Shown piece after piece: positions 2,739-60,242 of a stretch of DNA of 64,000 nt. The position numbers were made by a program, and so were the translations under genes. The stretch is from assembly GCA_018304175.1 (NCBI GenBank), contig JAGVWT010000003.1, positions 1-64,000 on the forward strand. Direction: 5' to 3'. The notes under the pieces are model-generated. The model ran no database searches, was not told where the DNA came from, and was given only the letters and a program-made list of their open reading frames with translations. The stretch's first letter is position 1; every line of letters begins with the position of its first letter. The stretch is from Candidatus Pacearchaeota archaeon. GTDB lineage: Archaea; Nanobdellota; Nanobdellia; Pacearchaeales; GW2011-AR1.

Positions 2739-2831
2739 GCCCTCGTAGCTCAGCGAGAACACGAAGTTTTCTCGCGCACTTTCCGGTTTGAATTCGTTTA
2801 AACCGATTAAGTCGCTACGTTGGTAATGAGT
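2739..2831 (+). repeat. Duplicated tRNA-Arg 5' end (16 bp) plus 77-nt hairpin-rich insert
   Basis: gccctcgtagctcagc at 2739-2754 is identical to 2832-2847; insert carries TTTAAACCGATT (2797-2808) and GCTACG (2814-2819). Confidence 0.9.
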
Positions 2832-2942
2832 GCCCTCGTAGCTCAGCCTGGATAGAGCGACTGCCTTCTAGCGATTACGCATACGCATCGCGAAACACGG
2901 AAAGAAAGCAGTAGGTCGCAGGTTCAAGTCCTGTCGAGGGCA
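2832..2942 (+). tRNA. tRNA-Arg(TCT) with 37/38 intron (about 2871-2906)
   Basis: Acceptor gccctcg/cgagggc, D-arm gctc/gagc, anticodon stem actgc/gcagt with CT-TCT-A, T-loop TTCAAGT. Confidence 0.92.
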
Positions 2943-2945
2943 TTT

Positions 2946-3045
2946 AGGATTTGAACTGCTAAATCAGTTTAAGAGAGCCAGGAAGGGGTTAGTGTAAGGG
3001 GAAACGTAGTTGCCCCTCATGGTTCAAGTCCTGTCGAGGGCATTT
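2946..3045 (-). repeat. 75-nt insert plus duplicated tRNA-Arg 3' end (25 bp)
   Basis: ggttcaagtcctgtcgagggcattt at 3021-3045 is identical to 2921-2945; 2984-3020 is the near reverse complement of 60089-60119. Confidence 0.9.
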
Positions 3046-7297: not shown

Positions 7298-8239
7298 CTA
7301 CTCAACTTTTTCCACGGTTTTTATATCTTTGAGTGCGTAGATTAAATCAGATACTTTTTTAGGCAATTCACTCATTGACAAAATTGAGTATTTTAAGTTC
7401 AATTCAGCGGCTTTTTTTGCTGCTTTTATTATTTCTTTTTCAGTGATTTTCTTTTTGTTAAAAGCCATAAGCAATTGTTCTTCACCATTATTTTTAACCT
7501 TAAGAACAATTTCATCTTTCCCAAGTCCTTCAATACTAGTAATTTCAATTGCCGATTTAGAAAGAAAGTCTTTAATTTTCTCAAGAAACTTATCATTTTG
7601 CTTGCTTTTTTTTGAGGTAGTTTTCTTTTTCAGAGTCTTTTCTTTTATTTTTTTTTCTGTTTTTGCTTTTGGTTCAGAAACTACAGAGGTTTTTTTGTCA
7701 AATATTTCTAGTGTTTTGGTTTTTTCTCTAATTTGTATTAATGGTTTTTTTGGTTTAGAGATTTCTTCTTCAGATATCATTGGTTTTTCGTTTATTGGTT
7801 CTTTTTTTATTTCAAAAGTAGAAATGCTTACAGTGAAGTATCTCCAGTAAATATCTCCTGACTCGTTAGGATATTTGAAAGGAACCGCAAAGTCTTTCAA
7901 TGAACGCAGAGCAACTCTTATAGCAGGTTCTTGTTCAGAATCTTTGAGAAATTTTTTTTCTTTTAGCAGAATGAATGCTTCTCTTTCTTTGCTTTTTAGA
8001 TATTCTGAAAATCTTTCTAGCATGAATTCTTGCCCTGGAATAAAATAAAGGGGAGAACTCCCAACTTTCATATTACTGACTTTTATTCTTTTTTCGTCTA
8101 CAAGTTCAGAAAGAAATGCAGAAGAGAAGAGAATATTCATACCAGTTTCTTTTGCAATGTGAACTGGAAGACGCGGCCCTTTCATTCTAAAAATTCCAAT
8201 GATTTTTTCTTTTAATTCAGAAGTGTTCTGAGCAGGCAT
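7298..8239 (-). CDS. Hypothetical protein with N-terminal winged-helix-like region and Lys-rich linker
   Basis: Long ORF with coding bias; GPRLPVHIAK...LSELVDEKRIKVS resembles a wHTH; function unknown. Confidence 0.7.
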   Translation of the reverse strand: MPAQNTSELKEKIIGIFRMKGPRLPVHIAKETGMNILFSSAFLSELVDEKRIKVSNMKVGSSPLYFIPGQEFMLERFSEYLKSKEREAFILLKEKKFLKDSEQEPAIRVALRSLKDFAVPFKYPNESGDIYWRYFTVSISTFEIKKEPINEKPMISEEEISKPKKPLIQIREKTKTLEIFDKKTSVVSEPKAKTEKKIKEKTLKKKTTSKKSKQNDKFLEKIKDFLSKSAIEITSIEGLGKDEIVLKVKNNGEEQLLMAFNKKKITEKEIIKAAKKAAELNLKYSILSMSELPKKVSDLIYALKDIKTVEKVE

Positions 8240-43582: not shown

Positions 43583-44150
43583 TTATTCTTCTACCAATTC
43601 ATCAAGGCTTTTTGGTTTTCTTTTTATCTCAAGAGTGGAAAATAATAAACTCAATGTTTCTTCCAAAGGAATATTTTTGCCATGTATATATGACGAAACC
43701 GTCTGTCGTGTCACACCTATCTGTTCTGCAAGCCATGTTTGATTTTTTCCTAGTTTCTTCAAACTATATTTTATTAAGTCGCTTAACTCTTTATTCGTAT
43801 GTCTTTGACTTCTTTTTACAGCAAGATGTTCTCGATATTTGCTAAGATTCTTGAAACCTTTTTGTACAGCAAGATGTTCTTGATATTCGCTACGATTCTT
43901 GAAACCTTTTTTTACAGCAAGATGTTCTTGATATTCGCTACGATTCTTGAAACCTTTTTTTACAGCAAGATGTTCCATATATTCGTTTAAATTCTTGAAA
44001 CCTTTTTGTACCTTGTCTTCTGCCTTCTGTAAGACCCCATGCAGAAGTATAAGATATGTTTATAGATTTAGCAATATCAGTTATACTATCTCCTGTTTCA
44101 TACATTTCCCATGCTCTTTCTCTCTGTCTGTCTTGTATTTTTCTTTGCAT
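43583..44150 (-). pseudogene. Frameshifted HTH - repeat - XRE-HTH regulator
   Basis: 44150 ORF gives an N-terminal HTH (DSITDIAKSINISYTSAW); the repeat and the C-terminal XRE HTH (QTWLAEQIGVTRQTVSSY) are in the +1 frame. Confidence 0.65.
43813..44011. repeat. 48-bp tandem repeat, about 4 units, encoding EHLAVKKGFKNRSEYQ
   Basis: TACAGCAAGATGTTC recurs at 43817, 43865, 43913, 43961. Confidence 0.95.
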
Positions 44151-47878: not shown

Positions 47879-47918
47879 CTAAAAACCTTTAAATACGTTT
47901 TTCTTTTTCTCAAATCAT

Positions 47919-48011
47919 GTCCCGGTAGCTCAGCAGGTAGAGCACATGACTGTTAGAATTTTGAAAATTGCAGCGATCATGGGGTCGTAGGTTCGAGTCC
48001 TACCCGGGACG
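47919..48011 (+). tRNA. tRNA-Asn(GTT) with 20-nt 37/38 intron
   Basis: gtcccgg/ccgggac, catga/tcatg stem with CT-GTT-A, clean BHB (ctgt/gcag), TTCGAGT. Confidence 0.93.
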
Positions 48012-48013
48012 TT

Positions 48014-59346: not shown

Positions 59347-60039
59347 ATGCAGCCAAAAAAAAGGTTGGACGATACGGTCTCTTATCTGAAGAAAAAGAGA
59401 AATGTTTTGCTTTTAACAACTTCTAATAGGTGGGCTGGAAATCATGAAATTCCAAAAAGTTCCCAACTTGCCTATTACATAAACAAAAAACTTGGAAAAA
59501 AATCAAAAATTATTGAAGTTGCGACATTAAAAATTTATATGTGTGAGGGTAATGTTTCTACTTCTAAAGGTAATAATTGTGGTGTTAAAGACGCTGTTTT
59601 GAAAGATAAGAAAAAAAATCCGTCTGGTTGTCATCGGTGTTATGCATCAATAAATAATAAAGATGATGAACTCTGGAAAATTTCTAAAGAGTTATTGTCT
59701 TCTGATGCTGTTTTGTTTTTTGGTTCTATAAGGTGGGGTCAGGCGAATGCGATTTATCAAAAACTTATAGAAAGACTTACATGGCTTGAGAATAGGCACT
59801 CAACACTTAAAGAAGATAATATTTTGGGAAATATTGACGCCGGTGTTATTTTTGTTGGTCAAAATTGGAATGGAGTAAATGTGGTTAAAATACAGAGGAA
59901 AGTGCTTGATTTTTTCGGCTTTAAAACTCCTAAAGTTTTGTCTTGGAATTGGCAGTACACAAAAAATGCGTATGATGAAAGCCAAGATTCTTACATGAAT
60001 TCAATAAAGAAATTCAAGAAAGATTTTAAATTTAATTAG
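59347..60039 (+). CDS. Flavodoxin-like / NAD(P)H-dependent FMN reductase-fold protein
   Basis: LTTS.R...SS.LA, CEG..S..GN.C...C, SDAVLF.GSIRWG...K.IERL. Confidence 0.7.
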   Translation: MQPKKRLDDTVSYLKKKRNVLLLTTSNRWAGNHEIPKSSQLAYYINKKLGKKSKIIEVATLKIYMCEGNVSTSKGNNCGVKDAVLKDKKKNPSGCHRCYASINNKDDELWKISKELLSSDAVLFFGSIRWGQANAIYQKLIERLTWLENRHSTLKEDNILGNIDAGVIFVGQNWNGVNVVKIQRKVLDFFGFKTPKVLSWNWQYTKNAYDESQDSYMNSIKKFKKDFKFN

Positions 60040-60044
60040 ACAAT

Positions 60045-60052
60045 TTTATAAA
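60045..60052 (+). promoter_or_regulatory. TATA box for the tRNA-Ile locus
   Basis: TTTATAAA ending 24 nt before G1 of the partial copy (60076). Confidence 0.65.
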
Positions 60053-60071
60053 TGGATTTGGTTTTGATTTT

Positions 60072-60163
60072 AAGCGAGCCTGTAGCTCATGAGGGGCATA
60101 TCCCCTTACAATAACCCCTATCGTTAAAACCGATTGGTCGCTACAGTCTTGAACAGAAAAATG
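60072..60163 (+). repeat. Duplicated tRNA-Ile 5' end (18 bp) plus 74-nt insert
   Basis: aagcgagcctgtagctca at 60072-60089 is identical to 60164-60181; insert related to both tRNA-Arg inserts. Confidence 0.9.
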
Positions 60164-60167
60164 AAGC

Positions 60168-60242
60168 GAGCCTGTAGCTCAGCCCGGTTAGAGCACTGCT
60201 CTGATAAGGCAGGGGTCCGAGGTTCAAATCCTCGCAGGCTCA
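60168..60242 (+). tRNA. tRNA-Ile(GAT)
   Basis: gagcctg/caggctc, ctgct-CTGATAA-ggcag, TTCAAAT, A73; no intron. Confidence 0.94.

Follow-up and report, generated by a model that had tools for sequence, protein, structure and literature searches.

Rickettsia palindromic elements are small hairpin-forming repeats that occur in many copies and are tolerated inside RNA genes. Casposons are driven by Cas1 and produce target duplications of 14–15 bp, often at the 3′ ends of tRNA genes. Long duplications at tRNA gene ends are also present at the loci described here. MITEs and the IS200/IS605-derived PATEs (PMC3119063) resemble these loci in being short, gene-less hairpin repeats that occur in multiple copies. 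In the tRNA-gene-disruption model of Sugahara et al. 2012, a fragment of a tRNA gene is displaced by inserted DNA (PMC3293823). The attL/attR duplications of archaeal viruses and plasmids share with our loci an intact tRNA gene and a displaced 5′ or 3′ fragment of it, which forms a direct repeat (PMC3293823). The transposition of tRNA introns in the Thermoproteales (Fujishima et al. 2010), in the form in which it is summarised in PMC4090602, concerns bulge-helix-bulge introns and a permissive endonuclease.

The window is the whole analysed stretch of 64,000 nucleotides, and belongs to a Pacearchaeota/Woesearchaeota-like (DPANN) genome of 544 kb (0.54 Mb) with 33% G+C and 88% completeness, referred to as G000. 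A neighbouring protein led to relatives that are MAGs from groundwater, labelled 'Candidatus Pacearchaeota/Woesearchaeota/Nanoarchaeia'. The genome contains 37 tRNA genes, which were called with ARAGORN and the Rfam tRNA model, and the end duplications of G000 tRNA genes were counted by an exact-repeat scan and a per-tRNA test. The comparison set comprised 121 genomes of the family, among which G001 and G002 belong to the same genus as G000 and the others include members of other genera. The call at 47918–48012 (+), reported by ARAGORN as 'tRNA-Stop (tta)' without intron mode and as tRNA-Asn(GTT) with a 20-nt intron with intron mode, is an annotation trap and no suppressor tRNA. The repeat scan also identified a tandem repeat of about four 48-nt units at 43813–44010.

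The tRNA-Ile(GAT) gene carries a second copy of its 5′ end beside the promoter, and the insert between the two copies (60090–60163) is built from distinct parts:

60044..60052, + strand, promoter TATA box TTTTATAAA of the tRNA-Ile unit, with motif and spacing as in insert-free tRNA genes
60072..60089, + strand, outer (promoter-proximal) copy of the tRNA-Ile 5′ end, an exact 18-nt direct repeat with period 92
60090..60119, + strand, short variant of hairpin M1 (GAGGGG/CCCCUU) with a C-rich tail, 29/30 identical to the reverse complement of 2984–3020
60120..60135, + strand, near-palindromic core M2 ATCGTTAAAACCGATT, consensus TTCGTTTAAACCGATT, matching the tRNA-Arg 5′ insert at 2793–2808
60140..60146, + strand, antisense GCTACAG, complementary to tRNA positions 5–11 (CTGTAGC), which both copies have
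60147..60163, + strand, A-rich locus-specific spacer, different from that of the tRNA-Lys(TTT) insert and predicted to be unpaired
60164..60242, + strand, inner repeat copy (60164–60181) and intact tRNA-Ile(GAT) (60168–60242), called by ARAGORN and with an Rfam tRNA score of 69.8 bits

The repeat AAGCGAGCCTGTAGCTCA at 60072–60089 and 60164–60181 is composed of four leader nucleotides and tRNA positions 1–14, and the end of the TATA box TTTTATAAA is 24 nt from G1 of the outer copy (60076). Of the parts of the cassette described below, the insert lacks only a clear CTTCC linker, in place of which it has a shortened CCCCT. It is most closely related to the 5′ insert of tRNA-Lys(TTT) (82% over 117 nt), and the two are nearly identical as far as the antisense and divergent beyond it. 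Positions 60147–60156 of the spacer contain TCTTGAAC, a complement of the T-loop GTTCAA, and the M2-side of the Leu and Gln 3′ inserts begins with the same letters; this may be a chance similarity or a trace of exchange with a 3′-type cassette. Directly upstream of the tRNA-Ile unit, positions 59347–60039 (+) encode a 230-aa protein without a Pfam match. Its 57–69% identical relatives occur both among DPANN archaea and among Campylobacterota such as Sulfurovum, a distribution that may reflect transfer between domains. A search for conserved synteny at the Ile locus among relatives found none.

The tRNA-Arg(TCT) gene, located 57 kb away in the same window, has inserts at both ends:

2739..2831, + strand, tRNA-Arg(TCT) 5′ cassette: outer copy (2739–2754), type-B hairpin, linker, M2 (2793–2808), antisense GCTACG and spacer
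2832..2942, + strand, intact tRNA-Arg(TCT) with an intron in the anticodon region, Rfam tRNA score 57.1 bits
2946..3045, − strand, tRNA-Arg(TCT) 3′ cassette in mirror orientation, absent from the G002 ortholog

The Arg repeats start at 2739 and 2832 (16 nt, period 93) and at 2921 and 3021 (25 nt, period 100), and the TATA box TTTTAAATA at 2707–2715 ends 24 nt before 2739. The 3′ cassette is formed by the antisense to the T-loop, M2, linker, and M1 (2946–3020), followed by the outer copy of the 3′ end (3021–3045). The RNase Z gene (1796–2692, +) ends 47 nt upstream of the tRNA-Arg(TCT) outer copy; this 3′-processing enzyme is thus encoded beside a tRNA with a 100-nt trailer. At a permissive threshold, Rfam searches of the Ile and Arg loci identified tRNA only, and no ribozyme, C/D-box, or other family.

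The original prediction had presented the Ile insert as a mosaic that links the two Arg inserts. The underlying similarities are real: when the Arg 3′ insert is reverse-complemented, 29 of the 30 bases at 60090–60119 agree with it, with one 6-nt indel in the loop, and 60121–60144 agree with the Arg 5′ insert (2794–2818) in 22 of 25 aligned columns. Both local-alignment scores were reached in 0 of 2000 shuffles, and the opposite orientations scored at the level of chance. The distance of 24 nt between the TATA box and the decoy G1 at the Ile and Arg 5′ loci, and the repeat spacings of 92 and 93, were also reproduced. The sharing of modules therefore stands, but the Ile insert is not a recombinant of those two Arg inserts as such, its nearest relative being the Lys(TTT) 5′ insert. 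The mosaic look is the general modular build of the family, the first hairpin of which is exchangeable. Since 3′ inserts mirror 5′ inserts, the Arg 3′ insert has to be reverse-complemented before it matches the Ile 5′ insert. The further proposal that the inserts are one family and not products of local slippage is borne out by modules in a fixed order that are common to the three inserts, to at least 15 tRNA genes of G000, and to many genes of other genera. That other genera show this architecture in assemblies made independently argues against mis-assembly.

Inspection of the other tRNA genes of G000 for the same pattern showed that about 15 of the 37 have a 13–25-nt end duplicated 84–142 nt away, four of them at both ends. 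We regard these inserts as a probable family of small gene-less insertions, here called cassettes, which are specific to tRNA genes in this DPANN family. All inserts of G000 follow one order, which is, read inward, outer end copy, hairpin, C/U-rich linker (often CTTCC), M2 (TTCGTTTAAACCGATT), antisense, A-rich spacer, and intact tRNA; 5′ inserts have this order in the tRNA sense, and 3′ inserts are their mirror image. The inserted DNA is about 50–125 nt long, has no ORF between the repeats, and is positioned in the D-loop region (usually after A14) or the T-loop region of the tRNA gene. The displaced gene end is present twice, in the intact tRNA gene inside and as a truncated relic outside, which lies beside the promoter in the 5′ type and at the far downstream end of the unit in the 3′ type. 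The hairpin directly after the outer copy can be M1, type B (the 'cgagaacacgaagttttctcg' hairpin), or another type. The antisense has 5–10 nt, starts 2–5 nt past M2, and complements the final stretch of the copied end.

The hairpin M1 is present in the tRNA-Lys(TTT) 5′ insert as well, and also occurs alone in a tRNA-Asp intron, the variable loop of RNase P RNA, three intergenic sites, and a tRNA-Lys intron of G006. Both the introns and the RNase P RNA variable loop are settings in which additional RNA is either tolerated or taken out. As a module, the first hairpin can be exchanged, and it probably also spreads independently. The RNase P RNA gene of G000 (G000:C17:7350–7674) contains an insertion of about 50 nt with M1 at approximately 7375–7412, just after the conserved GAGGAAGGTCCG-CCAC; the corresponding site in G086, G002, G017, and G010 has other sequences or none, and M1 is absent. 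The tRNA-Asp(GTC) gene (G000:C14:126735–126871, −) escaped both ARAGORN and the first Infernal pass, and its canonical-position intron is largely the M1 hairpin. The intron of the G006 tRNA-Lys(CTT) gene (L074:262–307) holds the short M1 variant of the Ile insert.

The core M2, searched with up to two mismatches, has seven copies in G000 compared with one for a reversed-pattern control, and all seven are within tRNA end-inserts. Among the 121 genomes, M2 is clearly above this control in only a handful, with enrichment in G010, G086, G136, G017, G007, and G052. The fetched M2 copies of G010, G086, and G007, and most of those of G017, adjoin tRNA genes with the cassette layout, and for most of the fetched copies of G136 and G052 there was no tRNA within the fetched stretch. 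The layout recurs in G002, G004, G007, G010, G017, and G086, and the variant in G004 is smaller and has no M2, with the same logic. Three tandem 57-nt units of type-B linker and M2 lie beside a tRNA-Glu gene of G017 (L030/L065, G017:C32:7290–7600), and the tRNA-Ile gene of G013 (L002) has two tandem 3′ inserts. Both arrangements are probably products of unequal exchange between repeat copies.

Several properties separate the cassettes from MITEs and PATEs. They lack terminal inverted repeats apart from the target/antisense pair, and their right end is locus-specific. Their duplication is 13–25 nt long, variable, and always reaches the gene end, and they occupy tRNA genes only. A parent transposase was not found (TnpB was searched for in G000). 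Unlike casposons, they have no terminal inverted repeats or cargo, their duplications vary and do not exceed 25 nt, and Cas1 was not found in G000. Literature searches found no published description of a tRNA-end-copying cassette arrangement, and the family is apparently undescribed so far.

The tRNA-Arg(TCT) ortholog of G002 has the same promoter flank without either insert, and the tRNA-Ile gene of G001 has no 5′ insert. Because of these empty sites in the same genus, we conclude that the cassette was inserted inside the gene together with a fresh copy of the gene end. The end of the TATA box is 21–24 nt from G1 in the insert-free Ile orthologs and in all insert-free tRNA genes of G000, and insert-bearing genes keep this spacing for the outer copy. 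Wherever the two copies differ, the damage is always in the outer one. The Ser outer copy of G000 differs at 2 of 15 positions. At the C12 locus (L014, G000:C12:14960–15290) there are three serial copies of the 5′ end, with A instead of G7 in the middle copy and a truncated outermost copy that has lost G1. The two inserts that separate these serial copies are not alike, and in the second a promoter-like AAAACTTTTATAC lies 28 nt upstream of the gene. The outer copies of G007 deviate at 3 of 18 positions (Leu 3′), 3 of 20 including the junction base (Lys 3′), and 1 of 13 (Lys 5′); the Leu and Lys mismatches break the T stem or weaken the acceptor stem, and the inner copies still pair. Most outer copies are 100% identical to the inner ones, even at loci common to different genera, which counts weakly against their being relics, as only about two changes would be expected.

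Each affected tRNA gene is the sole one found for its anticodon, except for tRNA-Glu(TTC), which has two genes according to ARAGORN, one of them better read as Lys(TTT). Since there is a single gene per anticodon, the inner genes must work. The outer tRNA-Ile copy at 60072–60089 is probably a decoy or relic, and the label 'decoy', under which it was originally described, fits the evidence. Transcription starting at the repeat start fits Glu CTC and Lys CTT and fails for Ile and Lys TTT. An internal promoter function of M2 was rejected, as M2 has no fixed distance to the inner G1 (23–54 nt).

The removal of the inserts as a 5′ leader or 3′ trailer is feasible. The genome encodes a full-length archaeal RNase P RNA (78 bits, E = 1e-22), which was also found in all five relatives tested, and the RNase Z gene is present in the window. 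A loss of RNase P, which would force a leaderless or intron reading, is excluded by the presence of its RNA gene.

The 5′ leaders are predicted to fold into three-way junctions in which the outer copy and the antisense form P1, the hairpin P2, and M2 P3. In type B, P3 is a 9-bp stem with a UUCG cap. The z-scores of the 5′ leaders are about −2 to −5, with the one exception of L015 (z = −0.4); the three-way junction of the Arg 5′ leader has z = −3.5. The Ile leader alone has a predicted energy of −26.8 kcal/mol (z = −3.3), and its minimum-energy fold contains P1 with the antisense paired to the outer copy, and M1 as P2. In the minimum-energy fold of the whole pre-tRNA-Ile (−67.2 kcal/mol), the outer copy is in the acceptor stem and the antisense pairs with the inner copy, and the fold with the sequestered decoy (−62.8) is 4.4 kcal/mol worse. 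The modelled thermodynamics alone does not decide between the two. Sequestration is argued from the order of transcription, because the sequestered fold is not the one of minimum energy. A comparison of fold energies in two orientations, intended to indicate the strand of selection, gave no consistent answer.

The antisense is matched to its own tRNA at position 6 in 14 of 16 5′ loci (label permutation, 443/20000). Two 3′ loci differ at several paired positions (CGACCA/TGGTCG versus GTCACCA/TGGTGAC), and covariation at position 4 (G4/A4 versus C/T) is seen between the Phe loci of G010 and G086. Past the conserved GCTAC the signal is of modest strength, and loci that are related do not count as independent observations. 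Several type-B 3′ inserts have an antisense that extends across the junction and finds its better partner in the inner copy, an arrangement that would not be expected if selection acted for decoy sequestration only. Antisense letters are matched to the individual gene even among copies whose cores are nearly identical, a hint that the antisense was made or chosen at insertion.

Together with its relatives, the Ile insert is probably one copy of a selfish or neutral modular cassette that copies tRNA ends. In the mechanism that we propose from the predicted folds, the unit would be transcribed from the original promoter, and the leader would fold during synthesis into the three-way junction, with the antisense pairing the relic copy. 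The outer copy, the hairpins, and the antisense would emerge before the inner copy, so that the relic would be trapped first and barred from taking the place of the real 5′ end in the acceptor stem. Cleavage by RNase P at the 5′ side and by RNase Z at the 3′ side would then free a normal tRNA. The cassette would be tolerated, as the gene is restored and the extra RNA trimmed off, and copies within a genome would exchange sequence, giving rise to the mosaic look. Both type-B copies of G002 have 'ccagttt' compared with 'ccggttt' in G000, and orthologous inserts are found at Thr(GGT) in G000 and G002 and at Ser in G002 and G010. The genome-specific variants and orthologous inserts together suggest that sequence exchange among copies has taken place as well as new insertions.

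How the cassettes are inserted is a more tentative matter. No reverse transcriptase, Cas1 (PF01867), or TnpB was found in G000, which is 88% complete. That nearly identical cores carry an antisense matched to the gene speaks against a guide set beforehand and fits either templating at insertion or quick selection of P1, and the junction-spanning antisense segments of 3′ inserts favour templating or guiding. Reasoning from the layout, we rejected an origin of the antisense by fold-back into a perfect palindrome, as the spacer and antisense flanks do not match its prediction. A speculative and rather doubtful option is that the cassettes are a new kind of mobile DNA without a dedicated enzyme, in which a replicative template switch, a fold-back, or a base-pairing 'self-addressing' step puts the structured core into the two most conserved tRNA segments, and the same event copies the target both directly, restoring the gene, and inverted, providing the closing helix. 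If true, DNA would be inserted in a hitherto undescribed way, and tRNA genes could become disrupted or extended by a route that is likewise new.

The alternative that survives best, even though we consider it unlikely, is that the inserts are adaptive leaders and trailers kept for their usefulness, for example in the timing or chaperoning of pre-tRNA folding and processing, as small RNAs acting on tRNA, or as spare-end decoys for tRNA-targeting nucleases or integrating viruses. Such a function would agree with the retention of the structure across hairpin types and genera, with the change of a G·U to an A-U pair in P3 between G000 and G002 at the orthologous Thr locus, with outer copies that are mostly intact, and with the share of tRNA genes affected, about 40%. 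It is harder to reconcile with the patchy presence of the inserts within one genus and across the family, with the existence of decayed copies and tandem arrays (L030), and with the different cassette types that the same tRNA has in different genera: the cassette of tRNA-Ile is of type A in G000 and of type B in G017, and G013 has tandem copies at the 3′ end of this gene.

Integrative elements classically leave partial tRNA duplications behind (PMC3293823), and the repeats could be attL/attR scars of integrated viruses or plasmids that have lost almost all their content, an explanation that we hold to be very unlikely. On contig C1, the stretch directly after tRNA-Glu(TTC) (L055, G000:C1:990–2124, −) encodes a tyrosine integrase that has a zinc ribbon at its C-terminus and is interrupted by a frameshift close to eight consecutive A. 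It is the only non-Xer integrase of G000, its second tyrosine recombinase, and looks like the remnant of an integrated element. Its close homologs (48–65% identity) occur in 5 of the 121 family genomes (G102, G132, G018, G120, G133) and are absent from the genomes with the most cassettes: G010 and G136 have no match, and G086 has only a weak XerA-grade match. We rejected this integrase as the mobiliser of the cassettes, as it does not co-occur with cassette-rich genomes. Whereas attL/attR duplications have one att site per element type and a gene-carrying element between the repeats, the cassettes are small and gene-less, and use at least 15 tRNA targets and both gene ends in one genome. They also have a fixed modular RNA-like structure with an inverted target copy, and an antisense segment is no feature of att sites. 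Their uniform insert size of 66–125 nt and common internal order are unlike random deletion remnants. No copies were found in 2.9 million viral contigs; a search of IMG/VR for viral carriers gave no exact match for M1 or the type-B hairpin and 12 matches to the M2 16-mer, none with cassette context.

The antisense could also be the guide of a self-addressed mobile element, which chooses its tRNA site by base pairing before insertion. Its constant position just 3′ of M2, its pairing with the last 5–10 nt of the copied end at 0–5 nt from the junction, the match of type-B 3′ antisense to the uninterrupted target across the junction, and the choice of the two most conserved tRNA segments as targets would suit a guide. 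We nevertheless find this idea highly improbable, as a guide within near-identical cores would have to mutate before every hop to become gene-matched, the matching past the conserved GCTAC is only 1–3 nt, and none of the effector enzymes searched for in G000 was found.

The splicing of the inserts is unlikely. Six of the seven canonical-position introns scanned in G000 have bulge-helix-bulge scores of 11–12/12, and the tRNA-Arg(TCT) intron has its best score of 10/12 at an odd position. In contrast, the insert junctions lack the motif, with an in-register mean of 8.1 compared with 7.2 off register, and the Ile junction scores 9, a value reached by 18% of off-register controls. The sole splicing endonuclease gene found in the 88%-complete genome, in which a second subunit could be missed, encodes 172 aa with one N- and one C-terminal domain and looks, from this domain content, like the single-unit form. 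The forms able to cut at non-canonical positions are (alpha-beta)2 and epsilon2. Related short sequences in different tRNA genes and positions of one genome, among them M1 in canonical introns here, are a likeness to the Thermoproteales introns; as described in the PMC4090602 summary, those introns do not duplicate an exon, whereas the cassettes have junctions without the motif, a duplicated gene end, and a functional inner copy. The least probable of all the explanations is that the inserts are large non-canonical introns, with the outer copy as a real 5′ or 3′ exon and the insert and inner copy cut out by the splicing endonuclease and a ligase: it draws on the promoter at a leaderless distance from the outer copy, the use of the outer copy in the acceptor stem of the minimum-energy fold, the occurrence of M1 in true introns, and a self-complementary AGCT that ends 2 nt before the repeat end and could form a 4-bp central helix (H = 4), and is opposed by the junction scores, the apparently single-unit endonuclease, the presence of RNase P, and the stem-breaking changes gained by outer copies where inner copies stay functional.

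If the inserts are tRNA-end-copying cassettes, they bear on how archaeal tRNA genes become interrupted, split, or extended. The events are recent and can be traced, with filled and empty sites in one genus, serial insertions at one gene, and decaying relics, and one hairpin module is common to end-inserts, canonical introns, and RNase P RNA. The annotation of tRNA genes is affected, as the partial copies can be mis-called. In this minimal-genome symbiont, about 40% of the tRNAs probably arise with a structured leader or trailer of about 80–140 nt, a circumstance that bears on the substrate tolerance of RNase P and RNase Z.
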